DNA of 64,000 nt, taken from NCBI GenBank assembly GCA_050949045.1, contig JBMNEZ010000001.1:1248001-1312000 (forward strand), in the 5' to 3' direction. Source of the stretch: Candidatus Izemoplasmatales bacterium (GTDB taxonomy: Bacteria; Bacillota_I; Bacilli_A; Izemoplasmatales; Hujiaoplasmataceae). Under the pieces are notes generated by a model, which did no database searches, had not been told where the DNA came from, and saw only the letters and a list, made by a program, of their open reading frames with translations. Made by a program: the position numbers and the translations under genes. Each line of letters begins with the position of its first letter. Position 1 is the first letter of the stretch. Below, one piece after another: positions 48,981 through 61,548 of the stretch.

Positions 48981-49071
48981 GGAGAAGTACCCAAGTGGCT
49001 GAAGGGGCTGGCTTGGAAAGCTAGTAGATCGTTAATCCGGTGCAGGGGTTCAAATCCCCTCTTCTCCGCCA
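48981..49071 (+). tRNA. tRNA-Ser(GGA)
   Basis: Acceptor ggagaag/cttctcc, anticodon arm ctggc-ttGGAaa-gctag, long variable arm, GTTCAAATC, GCCA end. Confidence 0.96.
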
Positions 49072-49128
49072 TATAACAAGCATGGGTTTGATACAATTCG
49101 TATCAGGCCTTTTTTGCTTTAATAAAGG
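49069..49128 (+). repeat. att-like site 1 (core + right arm)
   Basis: ccatataacaagcatgggtttgatacaattcgtatcaggccttttttgctttaataaagg. Confidence 0.8.
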
Positions 49129-49447
49129 CTTTTTCTCGCTTTAACGAGTAAAATTTGCTTTTAATATATTATAATATACGTACTTTGATTTATATAATTG
49201 GTTTTTCAAACCATTCATTATATATTTTTCAAACCATCTATTGGTTTTATCTTAAGGTTTATGCGGTGTTTTGATAAATAGTAGAAATGATTTTTTATAT
49301 ATTAAGACAAAAATAAAAAAATATAAGATCCTACTTATTTAGTAATTCTCAACTGAGAAGGTCATGGATTAGAAAAACTTGTGATCTCAATATATAATAT
49401 TAAGTCGTATTGCAAGATTTAACTATCAATAATTGAGGTGAAATATA

Positions 49448-50518
49448 ATGTCGATAAGAATAAAAAAAACAGTTTGGAAAATAACAAAAAATCCTTTAAT
49501 ACGATTTCTTTTTGTTTTTTTTAGGAGATACCACGGGAGTTTAAATAAACTGTACTTAGAAAGAAATAATTGTTTTCAAAGATATTCAAATAAAAACATA
49601 CAAAATTTATCTGAGAAAAAAATCAAACGTGAAATGCTTATATCACTATACAAATACGGCTCGGATTTTGAAGAGTACTTCCTTTATGATTTTTTAAATA
49701 TAGATAAGCAAAACAGAAAAAATTATATAACATCAAATAACAGGTATTATCTATATACTGTACTTAATGATTTCAAATTAGAACATATATTTTATAACAA
49801 AAATGAGACTTTCAACGCTTTTAAAGAGTACTTTAAACGAGATCAATTCTTTATTTATCAAGACGCATCATTAAAGGACTTTTTAATTTTCACTTCAAAT
49901 AAAAATAAGGTAATTTTTAAACCTAAGAATCTTAGCTCAGGCAGAGGTGTTGAGATTATAGATCTTGGCAATCATAACCCCGAGATGCTTTTTAATAATC
50001 TCAAACTAAAGGGAGAAGGAGTACTCGAAGATCTAATAATTCAAGATGATTTGATGGCTTCTTTTCATCCCGAATCTGTAAACACCTTACGAATACCGAC
50101 GATAATATGCCGGAAAAATTCTGTAGATAACATTACGATTTTCCACCCAATAATGAGGGTTGGAAAAAACAAAATGATTGTTGATAACGGTGGTGCTGGA
50201 GGTATTTTGCTGGCTATAGATTCTATTAACGGAAGTATTATTTCAGATGGTTATGATGAGGATGGCGTAGTATATGAAAGCCATCCCGATACCAATATTA
50301 AATTTAAAGGTTTCCAGGTGCCCAAGTGGGGTGAAGCGATTAAATTGGTAAAAGAGTTAGCAAGAAAATTTCCAGATGCAAGATATGTTGGATGGGATCT
50401 TGCCTTGAATAATAGAAAAGAATGGGTTTTAGTAGAAGCTAATATGAGCGGTGAGTTCAAAGTTTTGCAAATACCATTAAAGATGGGGTTATATAATGAG
50501 TTAAAAAAATATCTTTGA
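49448..50518 (+). CDS. Sugar-transfer-associated ATP-grasp domain protein
   Basis: IFKP...SSGRGV, VLEDLIIQ...HPESVNTLRIPT, VDNGGAGG, HPDT...F.GFQVPKW, YVGWDLA...LVEAN. Confidence 0.8.
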   Translation: MSIRIKKTVWKITKNPLIRFLFVFFRRYHGSLNKLYLERNNCFQRYSNKNIQNLSEKKIKREMLISLYKYGSDFEEYFLYDFLNIDKQNRKNYITSNNRYYLYTVLNDFKLEHIFYNKNETFNAFKEYFKRDQFFIYQDASLKDFLIFTSNKNKVIFKPKNLSSGRGVEIIDLGNHNPEMLFNNLKLKGEGVLEDLIIQDDLMASFHPESVNTLRIPTIICRKNSVDNITIFHPIMRVGKNKMIVDNGGAGGILLAIDSINGSIISDGYDEDGVVYESHPDTNIKFKGFQVPKWGEAIKLVKELARKFPDARYVGWDLALNNRKEWVLVEANMSGEFKVLQIPLKMGLYNELKKYL

Positions 50519-50594
50519 TTTTTAAACTTATTAACTTAAGAGTTGTTTTCAAATAAAAGAATAACTTTCAAATTAGACTGTATAGAGTAAATAC

Positions 50595-50774
50595 AACAAT
50601 CATTTTTAAATATTCCTTTGTTAAGCCGTTTTTATAGGGGTGCGTAAAACCCCTATGAAGGGTGCGTAAAAAAAACGGTCAGGGGTGCGTATTTGTATTA
50701 AAATAGGTTATACGTTCCATATAAGAAATATAGGTTTGATACATTTTGCATCAGCCCTTTTTGCTTTAATAAGG
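50595..50774 (+). repeat. att-like site 2 (left arm + core + right arm)
   Basis: cctttgttaagccgtttttataggggt...aggggtgcgtatttgtattaaaataggttatacgtt|ccatataag...tttgatac...atcagccctttttgctttaataagg. Confidence 0.8.
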
Positions 50775-50981
50775 AGTTTCCCTCATTTTGTCTAGTGTTT
50801 TTTGAAGTGAAAAGCAGCTAAAAAATAAGGATAAATTTCGAGAGCAGATTAGATCTTTACGTGATTACAAATTGATTTACACGATTTGAAGTAATTTTAT
50901 ATGAACTCTGATTTTAATGAATTTATTTAGTTATACTATAGAATAATTGAATTAAGATCTTTCTTTCTAATAGGAGAGGCT

Positions 50982-51467
50982 ATGTCTAACTTGCTAATCA
51001 GAAAAGCCACAGTTGATGATGCAGAAGGAAAAGGTTATGTTCATTACCAAAGCTGGATAGAAACATATTCAGGGCTTTTTCCCGATGAAGTTATCAGTAA
51101 TTTATCGCTTGAAAGGTTTGTAAAATCAGCGAAGGACCATCCTGAAAATACATATGTTGCCATCATAGATAATAAGATTATTGGATTTTGTTGCTACCTC
51201 GAATCTAGAGATGACGATTTGGAAAATACGGGAGAAATCATAGCAGTGTATGTATTAAAGGCATATCAAGGCTTAGGGATTGGAAGAAAATTAATGGAAG
51301 TTTGCTATAAGGAGTTAAAGAAATATTCTAAACTATCACTATGGGTGCTTGGCAGCAACAAGAAATCAGTAGCGTTTTATGAAAAACAAGGATTCATTGC
51401 TGATGGCAAAACAAAATTCTTGCAGGGGAAAGAAATTATTAGAATGATTAAGAAATCACAAGGATAA
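50982..51467 (+). CDS. GNAT family N-acetyltransferase
   Basis: IRKATVDDA...SWIETY, GEIIAVYVL..YQGLGIG, LWVL..N..AFYEKQGF. Confidence 0.9.
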   Translation: MSNLLIRKATVDDAEGKGYVHYQSWIETYSGLFPDEVISNLSLERFVKSAKDHPENTYVAIIDNKIIGFCCYLESRDDDLENTGEIIAVYVLKAYQGLGIGRKLMEVCYKELKKYSKLSLWVLGSNKKSVAFYEKQGFIADGKTKFLQGKEIIRMIKKSQG

Positions 51468-51495
51468 GGAAGGCTTTCTTTGAGTTTAATAATCT

Positions 51496-51626
51496 AACAG
51501 TCGTTTTGAACACTTCCCTTTGTTAAGCTGTTTTTATAGGGGTTAGGGGTGTGTATTTGTATTAAAATAGATTACACGTTCCATATAAGAAGCATGGATT
51601 TGATACAAATGTATCAGGCCTTTTTT
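51496..51626 (+). repeat. att-like site 3 (left arm + core)
   Basis: cctttgttaagctgtttttataggggttaggggtgtgtatttgtattaaaatagattacacgtt|ccatataagaagcatggatttgatacaaatgtatcaggcctttttt. Confidence 0.8.
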
Positions 51627-51739
51627 ACGCAGAAAGGGTATTTTATCCTATCTGTCAAAGTTTAATTCGGCATATTGAACATAATCGCGATGTCACAACC
51701 TTGGTTGTAGTAACACTCCAATGAATCAAAATAATTTAG

Positions 51740-51759: not shown

Positions 51760-51882
51760 ATATTGCGTTTTTTACGATTTGGGAAATTGAAGACTTAAGA
51801 ATGCGATATTATGTTGTATAATATATGGCAGTGATACCATTTGTATCCTCTATAAATACCCAATATTTTAGGGAGGTTGCTA

Positions 51883-52989
51883 ATGATTGTTACAGTCGAT
51901 TCAACGAAATCGCTGAGGCAATTCGTCTACTTCATCAAAACATTATACAAGGATAATCCCCATTATGTATTTCCGCTTTTCAAAGTCCAGATGAAGGAAC
52001 TGAAGAAGGCGGTTTTGGCTGACAAAGACTATACAGCGATCTTGTCTGTTGAACAAAACGAAGTCCGTGGTCGCCTTCTTTATACTTACAGCACATCGAA
52101 AGACAAAGATGAAAAAATCTGTTTCTTCTCTTTTTTCGATGCGGTGGATGATATGAAAGTAGCCAAGGAACTTTTTGACAGGATGGAAAGCGACATGAAA
52201 CGCGATGGCATAACCTATGCGGAAGGCACCTATACTCCTTATGATCCCGATACCAGAAGAGGTGTGCTTGTGAACGGTTTTGACATCGACCCGACCCTCT
52301 TCACTTCTTATAATTATCAATACTACCAAAAACTTATTGAACATTGCGGATATCGGAAAAAAATCGACACAGTCAGTCTGGGCGTCAATACCGGTCATGA
52401 AAACGGAAAGCTATTGAAGGCGCTCGCTGCGATGTTCTTCAGGCGACACGATGTGACAATCCGGCCTCTTGATTACAGCAAATTGGATCAACAAATCGAC
52501 GCCATTCATCACATCCTCCAAAAAGCCACCAATGAACTGGTTTACCAGGAAGCACCCTCGATCGAGATGGTTCGGAATGTCGCCAAAAACTTGAAATTTT
52601 TCATCAATCCCGATTTCATCCCAATCGCTTTTGAAAACAATACGGGAGAACCGATTGGGTTCTGCTTGGCATTACCCGATTTCAACCAGTTATTCAAAAA
52701 AACAAAAGGCAGAATCAAACCAATATATCTTTTGCTTAACAAACAGAAAATTAACAAAGTCAGAGGCATTTTGCAGTATGTCGTTCCCAAATATCAGGGA
52801 ACCGGGTTAATCGGCGCGCTCTTCAACAGTATCTATGAAAATTTCCCGAAGTACGGGATAACCGAATTTGAAGCTGGTACGATGCTCGAAAACAATCTGA
52901 GACCAATCAAAGTTTTTCAACGGCTCGGCGGCAAAATTATCAAAACTTATCGAATATTCGGAAAGGATCTGAATCAAGATGATCTATAG
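51883..52989 (+). CDS. YghO-like tandem GNAT-fold N-acyltransferase
   Basis: FV....LYKDNPHYV.PL, GR, FFDAVDD, GVLVNGFD..P....YNYQYY..LIE..GY.K, ALPDFNQ. Confidence 0.7.
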   Translation: MIVTVDSTKSLRQFVYFIKTLYKDNPHYVFPLFKVQMKELKKAVLADKDYTAILSVEQNEVRGRLLYTYSTSKDKDEKICFFSFFDAVDDMKVAKELFDRMESDMKRDGITYAEGTYTPYDPDTRRGVLVNGFDIDPTLFTSYNYQYYQKLIEHCGYRKKIDTVSLGVNTGHENGKLLKALAAMFFRRHDVTIRPLDYSKLDQQIDAIHHILQKATNELVYQEAPSIEMVRNVAKNLKFFINPDFIPIAFENNTGEPIGFCLALPDFNQLFKKTKGRIKPIYLLLNKQKINKVRGILQYVVPKYQGTGLIGALFNSIYENFPKYGITEFEAGTMLENNLRPIKVFQRLGGKIIKTYRIFGKDLNQDDL

Positions 52990-55372: not shown

Positions 55373-55496
55373 AGGGCATAATTATAAAACAAAGAATCCA
55401 AGAACTTTTGAAAGATTGAATGACAATCATGATCAAAGACACTGAAACCAAATAAATTGGCAACAATGTGATACCTATGAAAGGAATGTGATACTG

Positions 55497-55880
55497 ATGA
55501 AGACAACCTTGAGGGTTCGTATGTCTCAACTTGATGCTCATTACGGCGGAAATCTCGTCGACGGAGCCAGGATCATGGCTCTCTTTGGCGACGTCGCCAC
55601 CGAACTGTTGATTCAAAACGACGGAGACGAAGGGCTTTTCCGCTCATACTCGGAAGTCAATTTTCTCGCTCCGGTTTTTGCGGGTGATTTTCTTGAAGTT
55701 ACCGGTGAAATCATCCATGTCGGCAACACTTCGAGAAAAATAGAGTTTGCCTGTTACAAATACGTGGCCGCGAGACCGGATCTCAGCCCTTCGGCTGCCG
55801 ATTATCTAACGGACAAAGTGCTCGTTGCCACGGCGACGGGAACCTGTGTGGTTCCGAAAAATTCACAAAGGCAACCATGA
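55497..55880 (+). CDS. kal: 3-aminobutyryl-CoA ammonia lyase
   Basis: [32 protein letters not shown]. Confidence 0.93.
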
Positions 55881-56716
55881 ACAAGCTGATCATCACCTGC
55901 GCGATCACGGGTGCGGAAGTCACCAAAGCAATGAATCCCGCGGTTCCCTATACCATCCAGGAAATTCAAGAGGCTGCTTACGAGGCTTATTTGGCCGGCG
56001 CCAGCATCATCCACTTGCATGCCCGTTTTGACGACGGAACTCCGACACAGGATAAGGCAAGATACCAGAAATTGATCGCTGCCATTCGTGAGAAAGCCAG
56101 GGATGTGATCATCCAAGTTTCCACCGGAGGTGCGGTCGGAATGACAAGAACAGAACGCGCCCAGCCGCTCATGCTCGATCCGGAAATGGCGACGCTCGAC
56201 TGTGGGACTCTCAATTTCGGTGGCGACGATATCTTCGTCAACACCGAAAACGACATCATTTATTTCGCCAAACTTATGAATGATAAAGGCATCCGTTATG
56301 AGCTTGAATGCTTTGAAAAAGGCCATATAGATATGGCTCTACGGCTTTTTAAGAAAGGAATCATCAAAGAGCCGCTCCATTTTAGTTTTGTCCTTGGTGT
56401 GAACGGCGGCATGACTGGTGAAGAACGTGACTTTCATTTTCTTAGGGAAAGCATCCCCGAAAAAGCCACTTTCAGTGTCGCCGGTATTGGGCGGTATGAA
56501 TTTCCTCTGGCCAGATACGCGATTCAAACCGGCGGGCATGTCCGCGTTGGTTTGGAAGACAATCTATATCTTGAAAAGAATGTTTTGGCGGGATCGAACC
56601 GGGAATTGGTGGAGAAAGTTGTCAACATCGCAAAAGAATACAAGCGAGCGATCGCCTCTCCCGAGGAAGCCAGGGCGATCCTGAGAATGGAGAGCAGATA
56701 TGGAAAAACCGTCTAG
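55877..56716 (+). CDS. kce: 3-keto-5-aminohexanoate cleavage enzyme
   Basis: [41 protein letters not shown]. Confidence 0.93.
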
Positions 56717-57740
56717 ATTCGGAACCCACCGCGTTATTAAACCCAAAGGCGTTTTGCCTCAGGCGGCGGACAAGTTGGACAACGAGATGGTTTGTCGGGA
56801 AAACGAAATATTAATTGATGTGACGACACTCAATGTCGATTCAGCGTCGTTCACTCAAATCAAAGCCGCCTGTCATGACGATATTTCCCTAATGAAAGAG
56901 ATGATCATGAAAATCGTTTCCGAAAGAGGGAAATTGCAAAATCCCGTAACCGGATCGGGAGGAATGTTTATTGGCATAGTTAAAGAAATTGGTAAGAGCC
57001 TCAAAAGAGACCTCAAGCCCGGCGATGAGATCGCTTCGCTCGTTTCTTTATCCTTAACACCAATTAAGATTGACAAGATCCATGCCATACATCAGGAACA
57101 ATGCCAAGTCGACATCACCGGCCAAGCGATCCTTTTTGAATCGGGAATCTATGCAAAAATTCCCAAAGACTTGCCTTCAAAGCTCGTGCTTTCGGCGCTT
57201 GATGTCTGCGGAGCTCCGGCTCAGACGGCGAAACTCGTCAAGCCCAAAGACAGCGTCTTTATCATCGGCGGAGCCGGGAAAAGCGGTTTGCTCTGTGCCT
57301 ACCAAGCACGAAAATCAGCGACCAAAAGCGGAAAAATCATCGCTCTCATCAACGACGAACGGCAAAAGCCGGATCTTGAACGTCTCGGGGTGTGTGATCA
57401 TATTATTTTAGGCGATGCACGTAAACCGGTCGATGTCTATGAACAGGTTCTCGCTGTCAACGACAATCAAAAAGTAGATGTGACGATCAATGTCGTCAAC
57501 GTACCGAATACGGAGCTATCCTCGATTATGCCGACAAAGGACGAGGGAATGGTCTATTTCTTCAGTATGGCTACCTCGTTTACCAAGGCTGCTCTTGGAG
57601 CCGAGGGGATCGCCTCGGAGGTGAAGATGCTGATTGGCAATGGCTATACGAAAAACCATGCGGAACTGACGCTTGATTTGTTCCGAGAATCCCGACAACT
57701 ATATGATATTTTTATGGAAAGATACGGAAAGTTGGAATAA
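56700..57740 (+). CDS. kdd: L-erythro-3,5-diaminohexanoate dehydrogenase
   Basis: GTHRVI.PKGVLPQ.A, NPVTGSGGM, LVSLSLTP, FFSMATSFTKAALGAEG. Confidence 0.93.
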   Translation: MEKPSRFGTHRVIKPKGVLPQAADKLDNEMVCRENEILIDVTTLNVDSASFTQIKAACHDDISLMKEMIMKIVSERGKLQNPVTGSGGMFIGIVKEIGKSLKRDLKPGDEIASLVSLSLTPIKIDKIHAIHQEQCQVDITGQAILFESGIYAKIPKDLPSKLVLSALDVCGAPAQTAKLVKPKDSVFIIGGAGKSGLLCAYQARKSATKSGKIIALINDERQKPDLERLGVCDHIILGDARKPVDVYEQVLAVNDNQKVDVTINVVNVPNTELSSIMPTKDEGMVYFFSMATSFTKAALGAEGIASEVKMLIGNGYTKNHAELTLDLFRESRQLYDIFMERYGKLE

Positions 57741-57741
57741 T

Positions 57742-59007
57742 ATGATTAAGACGAATGATACGTATTTAATTAGGAAAACAAAATATTTTCCTGACGTCTC
57801 CGATGACAAGTGGTCGGATTGGCATTGGCAAGTCAAAAATCGAATCACCAGTGTCGAGGCTTTAAAAAAATTCATACCGCAATCCGAACAAGAACAAGAT
57901 GATATCAAGAATGTCCTTTCCAAATTCAGGATGGCGATCACTCCTTATTATCTGACTTTGATCGACCCAGACAATCCGGATTGCCCGATCAAGAAACAAG
58001 CGGTCCCCGGGGTTGAAGAGTTGATTCAAGGGAAGAACGATCTTCTTGATCCTCTTGACGAGGATGTTGATTCGCCGGTTCCCGGACTGACACACCGTTA
58101 TCCCGACCGGGTGCTTTTTCTGATCACCGATATGTGCAGTATGTACTGCAGGCATTGTACAAGAAGAAGATTTGCCGGCCAAAAAGACATGCCCGCGCCC
58201 AAACAAAGGATTGACCAGGCTATCGAGTACATCGCCAGAACTCCCGCGATTCGCGATGTGCTTTTGTCCGGCGGAGACGCTTTGTTGATGGAAGATGAGG
58301 TTTTAGAAGATATCATCGCCAGAATCCGAGCGATCGATCACGTCGAGATTATCAGAATCGGCACTAGGACACCTGTCGTTATGCCGCAAAGGATAACCGA
58401 CAGTCTGGTGAATATGCTCAAGAAGTATCATCCGATTTGGGTCAACACCCATTTCAATCATTATGATGAAATCACCCTTGAAAGTCGCAAAGCCATCGAG
58501 AAATTGGTCAATGCCGGTATTCCGCTAGGGAATCAGAGCGTGCTGCTCAGGGGCGTCAACGATTGTGTCCACATCATGAGGAAACTAGTCACCAAGTTGA
58601 CCGAGATTAGAGTAAGGCCATATTATCTTTATCAATGCGATTTGTCGCTTGGGATCGAACACTTCCGAACACCGGTTTCTAAAGGCATCGAGATCATTGA
58701 AGGCCTTCGGGGGCATGTCAGCGGTTTCTGTGTACCGACGTTTGTCGTTGACGGACCAAAGGGCGGCGGAAAGATCCCGGTGATGCCCAATTATATCGTT
58801 TCTCAAGCACCGGGAAAAATCGTGCTCAGAAACTACGAAGGTGTCATCACCACATACAGCGAACCTAGGGATTATACCTCTAAATGTAATTGCGAAGATT
58901 GTCAAAAGAATGGCCGTAACGAAGGCATCAGCGCGCTTCTTAGCGGCCAGAAGATTGTCATCGAACCCAGCTCCCTTGAAAGAAGAGAACGAACATCAAA
59001 ACACTAG
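57742..59007 (+). CDS. kamA: L-lysine 2,3-aminomutase (radical SAM/PLP)
   Basis: W.DWHWQ, THRYPDRVL, CSMYCRHCTRRR, PYYLYQCD, GGGKIP, LRNYEG. Confidence 0.96.
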   Translation: MIKTNDTYLIRKTKYFPDVSDDKWSDWHWQVKNRITSVEALKKFIPQSEQEQDDIKNVLSKFRMAITPYYLTLIDPDNPDCPIKKQAVPGVEELIQGKNDLLDPLDEDVDSPVPGLTHRYPDRVLFLITDMCSMYCRHCTRRRFAGQKDMPAPKQRIDQAIEYIARTPAIRDVLLSGGDALLMEDEVLEDIIARIRAIDHVEIIRIGTRTPVVMPQRITDSLVNMLKKYHPIWVNTHFNHYDEITLESRKAIEKLVNAGIPLGNQSVLLRGVNDCVHIMRKLVTKLTEIRVRPYYLYQCDLSLGIEHFRTPVSKGIEIIEGLRGHVSGFCVPTFVVDGPKGGGKIPVMPNYIVSQAPGKIVLRNYEGVITTYSEPRDYTSKCNCEDCQKNGRNEGISALLSGQKIVIEPSSLERRERTSKH

Positions 59008-60017
59008 TCGAGAAAATCATCCCTTATCAGATCATCAGCATTATCGGCAACGCCAAAAACGCCGGCAAGACAACTGTCTTGAACAGTTTCATACCGGATT
59101 TTGCCACCGAAGCCGTTGGCTTGACATCAATCGGCATGGATGGAGAGGCGATCGACAATTTGACGTTTCTTCCAAAACCGCGAGTGACAGCTTATCCTGG
59201 CTTTTTAGTTGCCACTGCCGAAAAATGCCTTGATGTCTGCGAGGCAGAATATGAGTTAATTGAAAAAACCAATCTTAGAACACCGCTTGGACAAATATCA
59301 ATCGTCAAGATCAACAAAGCCGGGCGTGTATTGATCGCCGGACCCTCAAAGATTAACGATATGGAAATAGTGGTTAATAAGATGCTTTCCCTTGGTGCGG
59401 CCAAGGTTTTCATTGATGGCGCTTTTTCGAGGAGATCCTCCTCGAAACTCGCTACAGCGACGATCCTGGTGATCGGCGCCAACCGCTCTCCGGTTATGGA
59501 AACGGTTCTAAGGGATGCACGAATCATCGTTGACAAACTGACCATCAAGGGAGTGGAAAAGAAACTCGAACCCCTTAATAGATGCAAACAGATCATAGCC
59601 GTTGATGACAAAGACAACTTTCACAAATATGATGGAGATTCTGTCATCACCGAACCGGAAAAAGTCTTTGATTGGATCAACTCTCGGTGGAAATACCTCT
59701 ATGTTCCAAACGCAGTGGGAATCGTATTTTTAAGATTGATGGTAAAAGACTTGTCCAAAAAATTCATCCTAGTGATGAATGATCCCGCGAGCTTGCAGAC
59801 CGACGAAACACTCGATAAACAGATCGGCGCTCTCAAAGATCGGTTACGCGTCATCCGTCCCGTCAATCTTGTGGCGGTATGCATCAACCCAACATCCCCC
59901 CGCGGATATGTTTTTGAAGAACAAATTTTTCATAGAGAATTGGAAAGTAGATTGAATCTTAAAGTGATAAACGTATTAACAAAGGTCGGTGATGATCATG
60001 AACAAACTCAATCTTGA
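58989..60017 (+). CDS. kamB: KamB-like protein (putative lysine 5,6-aminomutase reactivase subunit); non-canonical ACG start
   Basis: The frame upstream of the listed TTG encodes ISIIGNAKNAGKTTVLN, then GLTSIG.DGE..D and FIDGA; located between kamA and kamD. Confidence 0.75.
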   Translation, partial: TNIKTLVEKIIPYQIISIIGNAKNAGKTTVLNSFIPDFATEAVGLTSIGMDGEAIDNLTFLPKPRVTAYPGFLVATAEKCLDVCEAEYELIEKTNLRTPLGQISIVKINKAGRVLIAGPSKINDMEIVVNKMLSLGAAKVFIDGAFSRRSSSKLATATILVIGANRSPVMETVLRDARIIVDKLTIKGVEKKLEPLNRCKQIIAVDDKDNFHKYDGDSVITEPEKVFDWINSRWKYLYVPNAVGIVFLRLMVKDLSKKFILVMNDPASLQTDETLDKQIGALKDRLRVIRPVNLVAVCINPTSPRGYVFEEQIFHRELESRLNLKVINVLTKVGDDHEQTQS

Positions 60018-61548
60018 TCAACTAACGATCGCCAAATGCCGGGAACGGGCCAACAAGATCGCTACCGATGTGCATAATTTCATCCATCAACACACCACCG
60101 TCTCGGTCGAAAGGACGGCTTGTCGTTTGCTTGGTATTGATGGTGTTGATAAATTCGATGTTCCTATAGTCAACTTGATCGTTGATGATATTCTTAAAAA
60201 TGGCGATCTCGGCTTGGGCGTTTCAACCTATCTTGCGGCCAGCCTGAAAGCAACCAATCTTGATCTATCGACTTTAGTCGAAAGATTTCTTGATGGCCGG
60301 GAAAGCCTGACAAAACACCCTTTACCCGGCGCCGAAGAGACTACAACAATCCTTAGACCGTATTTTGAAAACCCTCTTTCCCAAATCAAGAAAAACCGTA
60401 AACTGAGAAGCGAACTAAAGAATAAATATCCGCGAAAACAAACGGAAATATATGTTATCGTCGCCACTGGCAACATCTATGAAGATGAGATTCAAGCGAA
60501 AGCGGCTGCCAAGGCCGGCGCTGACATCATCGCTGTGATCAGATCGACGGGCCAGTCCCTGCTTGACTATGTTCCCTACGGGATCACTACCGAAGGTTTT
60601 GGCGGCACTTATGCGACCCAGGCAAATTTCAAACTAATGCGGCAAGCCCTTGATGAAGTATCACAAAGCGAACAACGCTATATCAGCCTTGTCAATTACG
60701 CTTCCGGATTATGCATGCCCGAAATTGCCGCAATGGCCGCTTTGGAACGGCTTGATATCTTATTAAATGATAGTCTTTATGGGATCATTTTTCGCGATAT
60801 TAATATGCAAAGAACTTTCATTGATCAATATTTTTCCCGGCTGATCAACGCCTATGCCGGTATCATCATCAATACCGGGGAAGACAATTATCTAACGACA
60901 AGCGATGCTTTCGAGGAAGCTCACACCGTGTTGGCTTCGCAGTTCATCAATGAAGCGTTTGCTAAAAAAGCGCGTCTTCCGGAAAACCTAATGGGACTTG
61001 GCCATGCATTTGAAATCGATCCACTGATCAAGGACAGTTTTCTGTTTGAGTTGGCCCAAGCCCAAATGGCTAGAGAAATTTTTCCGAATGCGCCGCTCAA
61101 ATATATGCCGCCGACAAAACACATAACTGGCAATATTTTCAGGGCTTACCAACAAAACACTATGTTCAACATGGTTGCTTCTATGACCGGCCAGTCGATC
61201 CATCTCCTTGGGATGATGACGGAAGCGATCCATACACCATTTATGGCGGATCGTTATTTGGCGATCGAAAACGCCAAACTTGTCAATAACGCAGTGGCTT
61301 CATTTCAGGATGAGATCAGTTTCAAATCCGGAGGCTTGATCGAGACTAGGGCAAAAACCGTTTTGGACAATGCTAAAGCGCTTTTGGACCATATTGAGGA
61401 GATTGGCCTCTTCAAGGCGCTTGAAGCCGGAATGTTTGCCGGCACCAAAAGGCCATTTGCCGGCGGTAAGGGGCTCGATGGCGTAGTAAAGAAAAACAGA
61501 ACATATGTCAATGTCATCCAACAGGCGATGGAAGGTGAGTTGTCATGA
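59998..61548 (+). CDS. kamD: Lysine 5,6-aminomutase alpha subunit
   Basis: HTTVSVER, YVIVATGNIYED, QSLLDYVPYG.TTEGFGGT, KYMPPTK. Confidence 0.95.
   Translation: MNKLNLDQLTIAKCRERANKIATDVHNFIHQHTTVSVERTACRLLGIDGVDKFDVPIVNLIVDDILKNGDLGLGVSTYLAASLKATNLDLSTLVERFLDGRESLTKHPLPGAEETTTILRPYFENPLSQIKKNRKLRSELKNKYPRKQTEIYVIVATGNIYEDEIQAKAAAKAGADIIAVIRSTGQSLLDYVPYGITTEGFGGTYATQANFKLMRQALDEVSQSEQRYISLVNYASGLCMPEIAAMAALERLDILLNDSLYGIIFRDINMQRTFIDQYFSRLINAYAGIIINTGEDNYLTTSDAFEEAHTVLASQFINEAFAKKARLPENLMGLGHAFEIDPLIKDSFLFELAQAQMAREIFPNAPLKYMPPTKHITGNIFRAYQQNTMFNMVASMTGQSIHLLGMMTEAIHTPFMADRYLAIENAKLVNNAVASFQDEISFKSGGLIETRAKTVLDNAKALLDHIEEIGLFKALEAGMFAGTKRPFAGGKGLDGVVKKNRTYVNVIQQAMEGELS

Follow-up and report, generated by a model that had tools for sequence, protein, structure and literature searches.

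How do two small, AT-rich units, each with one gene and neither with a recombinase, come to stand in tandem directly behind a tRNA gene? The question is raised by the window analyzed here, a stretch of 64,000 nucleotides from a Candidatus Izemoplasmatales bacterium (GCA_050949045.1, contig JBMNEZ010000001.1, positions 1,248,001 to 1,312,000), in which such an array starts at the CCA end of tRNA-Ser(GGA). Comparison of its junctions with those of related genomes and viral contigs indicated that the units were likely inserted one after another at the CA of this CCA by a pair of large serine recombinases (LSRs) acting in trans. The most fitting description is that of cassettes without a recombinase that were piled up behind the tRNA by successive insertions, similar to pseudo-staphylococcal cassette chromosome (pseudo-SCC) elements or cis-mobilizable elements (CIMEs).

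A tandem array behind tRNA-Ser(GGA)

A 46-nt repeat occurs three times in the window (49069, 50717 and 51581; spacing 1648 and 864), and its first copy begins at the CCA of tRNA-Ser(GGA). The three repeats, which are 74-91% alike, are real and far above chance: the first 27 nt of copy 1 are matched at 23/27 positions by copy 2 and at 25/27 by copy 3, compared with at most 19 in 200 shuffles, and the symmetric junction pattern described below had exactly two matches in the window and none in 100 shuffles. Alignment further confirmed a right flank common to copies 1 and 2 and a left flank common to copies 2 and 3 (67 nt at 88% plus 27 nt at 96%). Repeats of about 45 bp with these shared flanks had been reported in an original prediction made from the letters of the window; its observation is confirmed here, and its interpretation is partly supported.

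The features of the array are listed below, with P for the left arm and P′ for the right arm, both written around the CA of CCA. The source genome (G000; 1.36 Mb, 44% GC) is cited elsewhere in the text as C1:position.

48981..49071, + strand: tRNA-Ser(GGA), the target gene (ARAGORN); its B arm is the last 24 bp before CA, with the T-loop at -21 to -17
49046..49095, + strand: junction 1, putatively attL-type (junction table); tRNA arm 49046-49069, CA 49070-49071, P′ arm 49072-49095 with TTTGATACA at +16 to +24
49072..50719, + strand: unit 1, 1648 bp from CA to CA, GC 0.29, without recombinase
49084..49116, + strand: intrinsic-terminator-like hairpin and T run within the P′ arm (fold -17.3 kcal/mol, z -4.65)
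49448..50518, + strand: cargo of unit 1, a sugar-transfer-associated ATP-grasp protein of 356 aa (PF14397, E 1e-42)
50615..50693, + strand: right-end module of unit 1, a CCTTTGTTAAGC box and three GGGTGCGTA repeats ~22 bp apart
50694..50743, + strand: junction 2, attP-type, inverted 9-mer at ±16-24; P arm 50694-50717, CA 50718-50719, P′ arm 50720-50743
50720..51583, + strand: unit 2, 864 bp from CA to CA, GC 0.32, without recombinase
50982..51467, + strand: cargo of unit 2, a GNAT acetyltransferase of 161 aa (PF00583, E 9e-21)
51517..51557, + strand: right-end module of unit 2, 38 bp shorter than that of unit 1, with repeat copies lost
51558..51607, + strand: junction 3, attP-type, inverted 9-mer at ±16-24; P arm 51558-51581, CA 51582-51583, P′ arm 51584-51607
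51584..51660, + strand: orphan P′ arm, terminator and GCAGAAAGGG-type flank, with ~80% identity over 71-94 nt to relatives' P′ ends after tRNAs
51877..52989, + strand: first host gene after the array, 370 aa, weak GNAT match

As had been predicted, both units are AT-rich (flanks, GC 0.44-0.45) and each holds one cargo gene, a single + strand open reading frame (ORF), with a recombinase in neither. Other units, as well as LSR-bearing elements, have the right-end module of unit 1 at their ends too, and the shortened right end of unit 2 would be a sign of decay. The orphan P′ arm is likely the left end, or a scar, of an older third element, judging from its resemblance to relatives' P′ ends.

The right ends of most units have three or four GGGTGCGTAA-like repeats, with a spacing of about 22 bp, ahead of P (in the window, 50615-50693), and TACACGAT repeats follow P′ in many units; the repeats on both sides are iteron-like.

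The junctions share a CA dinucleotide

Junctions 2 and 3 both read TGTATTAAA-15 nt-CA-15 nt-TTTGATACA, with an inverted 9-mer (TGTATYAAA…TTTGATACA) at ±16-24, and junction 1 reads tRNA end-CA-15 nt-TTTGATACA. Across 31 junctions from many genomes, the complementarity of the two arms was 0.74 about the CA center versus at most 0.43 at 15 other centers, and was limited to positions 16-24. These positions correspond to the zone bound by the zinc-ribbon domain in attP of serine integrases (Rutherford 2013, PMC3783163).

The extent of the crossover was read from a P profile that stopped before CA and hence did not contain it. This profile found 84 arms with the motif, and CA came next in 78 of them. 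Thereafter, 31 of the 78 continued with a strict P′ and about 11 with a P′ that was degenerate as judged by eye, while the rest ran into unrelated sequence, often a terminator. Because unrelated sequence follows P-CA so often, the crossover shared by the sites is CA alone. The core of about 45 bp that had been taken for the crossover region is the element's own P′ arm plus a terminator hairpin, and the internal P-CA-P′ junctions have the geometry of an LSR attP. The predicted series B-O-P′, P-O-P′, P-O-B′ holds for junctions 1 and 2, which are attL- and attP-type with CA as O, but the right side of junction 3 is a P′ arm and not B′. Likewise, the remainder of the repeat does lie downstream of the tRNA gene as had been stated, but only CA, and not CCA, is shared.

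A direct view of the boundary came from a unit common to G060 and G158, the latter outside the 158 genomes searched as this order. In both genomes a 6449-bp stretch of the unit, 99.3% identical, starts exactly at CA. Upstream of the arm, identity over 240 bp is 31% in an ungapped comparison, and the right ends differ.

An alternative, non-P′ arm (…GAAGTGGCTTCCAAAAGTTGGAG…) follows P-CA at L046:15953, L057:5304, L060:11829, L038:4870 and L040:1864. The GAAGTGGCTTCCAAAAGTTGGAG-type arm precedes an AAA_14-DUF4143 gene in at least two cases, and such a gene is present in about 10 array loci.

Elements with the same ends carry a pair of LSRs

In larger units bounded by the same ends, two LSR genes lie side by side; their products, of about 435 and 527 aa, share 41% identity over 339 aa. 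Both consist of Resolvase, Recombinase and zinc-ribbon domains (PF00239+PF07508+PF13408) and contain the YARVS catalytic serine motif. Such pairs were found inside P′…P-bounded units of G048, G053, G064 and G083; the carriers are islands with an AAA_25 protein (G048, G053) and a 51-kb prophage at tRNA-Ser(GGA) (G064), and the island-type carriers also hold restriction-modification and metal-resistance cargo. The original prediction had looked to larger elements with these ends plus a tyrosine integrase; the larger elements exist, but what they carry is the LSR pair.

Enzyme and site also occurred together more broadly. The site is present in each of the 12 order genomes that have an LSR match of at least 60%, versus 46 of 93 overall, the latter being the number with matches to junction 2. 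In public loci of at least 10 kb, the site was present in 14 of 28 with the 527-aa protein at ≥55% versus 2 of 71 below 55%, a comparison that used profiles derived from training on this order and in which two or more loci repeat others of the set. The reverse test is cleaner than this comparison. When viral loci were picked by T-loop-CCA-N16-TTGATACAA alone, this LSR lay downstream in 51 of 80, and in 48 of the 71 with at least 3 kb downstream, versus 1 of 62 generic tRNA loci used as a control. All but two of these 51 LSRs (49) point toward the tRNA.

A second clade of LSR pairs (35-45% identity) is unlinked to the CA/P′ site. Its members (550-600 aa, 35-45% identical to the 527-aa protein; L082:12014, L093:6001, L104:19416, L106:16069 and L311:14671) face the ends of tRNA-Cys or tRNA-Leu genes, behind which stands another arm that they have in common (ATACCRAGTT-like), and are possibly a parallel tRNA-end system.

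One enzyme group at many tRNA ends

CA-centered junctions were found in many genomes, behind many tRNAs and tmRNA; the predicted tRNA-anchored tandem array formed by site-specific integration is supported. The strict pattern T-loop-CCA-N16-YTGATRCA occurred at 60 sites in 36 of the 93 order genomes and at 0 in the reversed control, and the strict tRNA-CCA pattern was present in 28 of 151 genomes of a Clostridia family, that of the Pseudoflavonifractor record. Arrays of five to eight junctions were found in relatives.

Six LSRs that are 96-100% identical and have an identical P′ are located at tRNA-Pro(cgg), Met(cat), Leu(gag) and three ends unassigned by ARAGORN. Further LSR clusters combine Cys, Asn and Ala (96-100% identical), Leu and Ala, and Ser and tmRNA. 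The T-loop stands at a fixed distance from CCA in all tRNAs, and over all 47 tRNA/tmRNA ends of the source genome it matched the P motif, though weakly, at a mean of 4.6/9 at -24..-16 versus 3.2/9 at the 5-bp-shifted position. T-loop plus CCA may therefore be what the LSR pair reads, and a T-loop in register with the P-arm motif would explain how one enzyme could use many tRNAs.

Candidate free forms came from viral loci picked by a symmetric P-CA-P′, which had the LSR within 6 kb in 47 of 75 cases and a tRNA in 0 of 75. Among ten records whose ends were checked, one (G703) is a complete phage record with direct terminal repeats (100% complete), in which P-CA-P′ and the LSR pair are separated by 249 bp and the surrounding 6 kb contain no tRNA; it is a free circle with a free attP. 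The MO-XQ 'plasmid' (CP017949.1) was considered as a clean excised circle and rejected, as it carries chromosomal genes (pyruvate kinase, ClpB, PNPase). This 93-kb record (L311, L312) combines a prophage-like part, both LSR-pair types, at least five junctions and housekeeping genes, and could be a long piece of the chromosome that was either excised or misassembled.

Within the source genome, all six well-scoring matches of the P′ profile lie at tRNA/tmRNA ends or window junctions, and the three P arms lie at unit ends only. Two further features belong to this set.

G000:C1:496748-498987: second unit, behind tRNA-Leu(GAG), 2193 bp with two genes (410 and 78 aa)
G000:C1:1320681 and 838488: solitary P′ arms behind tRNA-Thr(TGT) and tmRNA, without unit or P arm

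The far end of the tRNA-Leu(GAG) unit consists of a P arm and a degenerate P′, and the terminator loop of its first P′ is 21 nt longer. The solitary P′ arms are likely excision scars or decayed elements.

With regard to tRNA-Ser(GGA) itself, genomes of the same genus differ, in agreement with the different content that had been predicted for relatives. P′ is present in G003, G004 and G008, and in G003 about 9 kb of other genes separate P′ from the host gene that is also found downstream in the window. The 370-aa host gene likewise lies downstream of tRNA-Ser(GGA) in G003 and G007, about 10-11 kb away. Empty sites had been predicted as well, and native ends were seen in G005, G006 and G007.

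Proposed mechanism of stacking

In the mechanism that we propose, a prophage or island visiting the cell would provide the LSR pair in trans. A circle with P-CA-P′ would recombine with a tRNA end at its CA, which would place the native downstream sequence behind P. Since the enzyme would cut at CA, the tRNA would stay intact, no gene fragment would be duplicated and a new terminator would be gained from P′, whose hairpin would replace the tRNA's own. Because the tRNA half would survive insertion, the next circle could enter the same CA and push the older unit downstream, each re-insertion leaving an internal P-CA-P′ joint. In the window, unit 1 would be the newest entry, unit 2 with its eroded end would be older, and the orphan P′ would stem from a still older element.

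Small units would most likely arise by deletion and shuffling of larger elements, with both ends kept. Most simply, those in the window would be trimmed or reshuffled derivatives of this kind, because the GNAT gene of unit 2 has 88% nucleotide identity to a gene in a larger block of another genus; in G011 its counterpart is within a larger multi-gene block.

Several results weigh against this reading. The support for LSR action is association throughout, gathered by comparing sequences, and the kin genomes and viral contigs compared are non-independent samples. Neither PF00239 nor PF07508 was found in the window's genome, and no LSR was detected there; this agrees with the prediction that an integrase would be needed in trans, and it also makes trans action on the window units an assumption. 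Several array-bearing genomes lack a close LSR match (e.g., G023 and G043), and of 77 loci of a more distant LSR clade that could be scored, only 6 have tRNA-CA-P′ within 700 bp of the gene, so some relatives do not use the site or do not have it next to the gene. Further, scoring of the T-loop with the P-arm matrix gave negative values in all registers. No right end was found for the third element and no further P arm in the genome, and the DNA downstream of the array lacks a P-CA-native end, which leaves the oldest event only partly explained. Searches with attR-plus-flank DNA, each covering five relatives, gave no close genome pair with the same site empty and filled, and none in which an empty tRNA had the matching native terminator; at tRNA-Gly, G018 and G043 have similar attR flanks but differ in cargo. 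Finally, contigs of four metagenome runs, a form of data that drops rare forms, contained no circle junction and no unit-skipping joint, so the excised circles that had been predicted were not recovered.

A wider claim can be put forward tentatively, with slightly more doubt than trust: that the LSR pair reads any tRNA or tmRNA end, inserts at CA without duplication, adds a terminator and moves cassettes across genera and orders. If true, this would be a general, little-described route of gene uptake at tRNA ends, an integron-like gene capture with dozens of entry points per genome and a universal bacterial integration tool. One enzyme at many tRNAs would break the usual one-integrase-one-site rule and would explain the stacking of defense, metal-resistance and modification genes in small-genome anaerobes, and a tRNA-generic, non-disruptive integrase would be useful for engineering.

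Alternative explanations

One alternative is an active integron-like platform, in which purpose-built cassettes would capture genes de novo, excise and be shuffled by the LSR pair in trans. We consider this rather unlikely. In its favor, none of 58 mapped units (up to 9.2 kb) contains an LSR; 34 are of at most 3 kb, 25 have one or two ORFs, and 160 of their 184 ORFs point away from the tRNA, with large units under-sampled because mapping was done within single fetched stretches. Near-identical units also occur in differing array positions and hosts (G042 and G043, 96% over 2.6 kb, besides the 99% pair G060 and G158). Against such a platform stand the right ends of shared units, which often differ, the eroded right end of unit 2, the GNAT gene of the larger block in G011 with its more distant copies located away from any site, and the lack of circles in the four runs. 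Moreover, as P′ carries a terminator, no shared Pc-like promoter is expected. Rather than products of integron-style capture with free cassette circles, as in the original prediction, the units may be trimmed remnants of larger elements.

The enzyme that had been predicted, a tyrosine recombinase (a dedicated integrase or the host XerC/XerD) acting on a shared core of about 45 bp, is highly improbable. Such an enzyme would fit the location, since tRNA ends are classical targets of tyrosine integrases (Islander, PMC4383910), and the source genome does encode XerD (beside deoB), a XerC-like gene and an 81-aa integrase remnant (C1:1162770). However, unrelated sequence directly after CA in about 36 of 78 P arms leaves no long core to be shared, and both Xer genes lie in housekeeping contexts. 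Tyrosine core sites have a short spacer, unlike the inverted repeats seen here, which are 32 bp apart. PF00589 was absent among the cargo and site-linked ORFs examined, namely from 0/111 array cargo proteins and 0/74 ORFs of 250-520 aa from LSR-less viral loci. A XerC/D profile with tblastn gave no match in array or viral loci, and none in control loci either, so this last test is insensitive.

Slightly less probable still is a generic terminator or miniature inverted-repeat transposable element (MITE)-like repeat spread behind tRNAs, with unrelated insertions as the genes between. The terminator hairpin inside the repeat and the solitary copies behind tRNA-Thr(TGT) and tmRNA would suit this explanation. 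Scattered copies were not what we found, however, as the six good P′ matches are confined to tRNA/tmRNA ends or junctions and the P arms to unit ends; the position relative to CCA is base-exact at the 60 sites in 36 genomes (0 in the reversed control), and the symmetric P arm and the LSR link would be left unexplained.

An assembly artefact, conceivable in a genome that is likely metagenome-derived and in which repeats can be misjoined, has next to no credibility given copies that are only 74-91% alike and junctions bridged by contigs of three studies.

The bridging contigs came from anaerobic-digester and bioreactor samples, the source of the runs that hold the host genome. Junctions 2 and 3 were bridged in runs X3, X4 and X6 (three studies) and junction 1 in run X3, run X9 being too patchy to tell; one bridging contig has 48 strain differences. 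In run X3 the depth was 2-7 over unit 1 and 17-20 on either side, which is a weak hint only and not a share of cells. No same-species metagenome loci were found with the 370-aa flank protein. A tRNA-pattern search of metagenomes gave 11 relatives' loci, six with a P′-like arm and five with a native end; window genes were present in 0 of the 11.

Comparison with known systems

The closest likeness to the proposed LSR-driven stacking is with composites of SCC or SCCmec and with the Enterococcus cassette chromosome, which have two adjacent LSRs, a central-dinucleotide crossover at a gene 3′ end, half-sites formed by degenerate inverted repeats, internal att sites and recombinase-free units (pseudo-SCC/SCI). 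In SCC composites newer elements push older ones outward, and ccr-less units keep their att sites (PMC13739063, PMC6222049). In contrast, insertion here is at the CCA end of many different tRNAs and of tmRNA, between P and P′ at CA, rather than at the 3′ end of rlmH, carriers include prophages, and units below 1 kb exist. Further, the LSRs are homologous to but not members of the CcrA/B/C families, reaching 86-140 bits in the NCBIfam models versus cut-offs of 700-900.

With CIMEs and accretion of integrative conjugative or mobilizable elements, the array shares the loss of the integrase, the retention of att sites and stacking at gene ends, including tRNA ends. The window units hold no integration or transfer genes and retain att sites; the eroded end of unit 2 would fit decay, and carriers in relatives are prophages and AAA_25 islands. 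According to a review, gene-end insertion is the work of tyrosine recombinases and leaves the gene end inside the direct repeat, and site-specific serine recombinases disrupt genes (PMC5704250), whereas here a serine pair would insert at a gene end, sharing only CA. In the literature searched, mostly open-access texts without supplements, no description of CA-only insertion at multiple tRNAs by an LSR pair was found.

Islands of Dehalococcoides lie in tandem behind tmRNA (ssrA), with CcrB-related DsiB and a second serine-recombinase gene (DsiA), and 15 of 31 lack an integration module (PMC3146451). Tandem units, a serine-recombinase pair and units without an integration module are thus common to both systems. 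DsiB is ssrA-specific, with an inferred T-loop cut and a 20-bp direct repeat (PMC3146451), unlike the present case, which has no duplicated tRNA fragment and one enzyme group at many tRNAs.

The A118/LI-type attP resembles the present sites in its 9-bp zinc-domain motif at positions 16-24 of each half, and attP x attP recombination has been reported for A118 and CcrAB (PMC3783163). It differs in that the T-loop fits the unshifted register better than the 5-bp shift of attB, and in having one LSR rather than two. The canonical 5-bp inward attB shift is not seen in the tRNA arms.

Integrons have IntI, attC single-strand hairpins with R/L boxes and a shared promoter. Like integrons and CALINs (clusters of attC sites lacking integron-integrases), the array is made up of small units that lack a recombinase, mostly have the same orientation and are added at a single entry point, but its junctions are double-stranded and LSR-type with a terminator each instead of a shared promoter. 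IntI was not found in the genome or beside the array, where only the XerC/XerD-type genes and the remnant were seen. The attC frame is RYYYAAC…GTTRRRY, and no such frame was apparent at the junctions by inspection, made without an attC model. Junction 2 folded no better than shuffles (z 0.41).

Tyrosine tRNA islands of the Islander type differ in the displaced tRNA fragment at their far end; BLAST of tRNA-Ser(GGA) found no tRNA fragment near the array. Since the Islander search requires both a displaced tRNA fragment and an on-board tyrosine integrase (PMC4383910), elements that share only CA would be invisible to it, and the same work (2015) states that serine integrases were not known to target tRNA genes (PMC4383910). 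Multi-targeting LSRs, with one LSR cluster at many sites, have been described (Durrant et al. 2023, PMC10083194) and resemble the clusters found here; their targets were defined by protein-coding genes, and the word tRNA has 0 occurrences in the main text (PMC10083194). A minority of tycheposon-type elements have serine recombinases at tRNA/tmRNA (bioRxiv 2020.12.28.424599). Lastly, the Ca. Heliusvirales gut phage PV036425.1 (L621) encodes a 49%-identical LSR pair annotated as 'DNA invertase' and hypothetical, which may be the integrases of this lineage; tRNA, integrase and recombinase have 0 occurrences in the corresponding paper (PMC11283538).

Cargo and neighboring features

Of 157 other genomes of the order, a single one has a match to the ATP-grasp protein of unit 1 (32% identity). 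Upstream of the GNAT gene of unit 2, run X6 differs from the window at 50900-50993 by about 11 substitutions and three gaps in 95 bp, with nearly identical adjoining DNA, which would represent a swapped promoter region. Cargo in the fetched array loci, surveyed in 111 hand-picked proteins, comprised restriction-modification, Fic, HipA, AAA_14-DUF4143, GNAT and metal-transport genes. A promoter scan was uninformative (11 sites versus 15.2 expected).

Elsewhere in the source genome, an AT-rich patch behind tRNA-Phe (C1:1162713-1163170) contains the C-terminal tyrosine-integrase remnant and a helix-turn-helix gene; it is a decayed element unrelated to the CA/P′ system. Downstream of the array, the gene run at 55488-61548 of the window encodes lysine 2,3-aminomutase- and 5,6-aminomutase-like proteins and, from its translations, presumably resembles a lysine-fermentation cluster.

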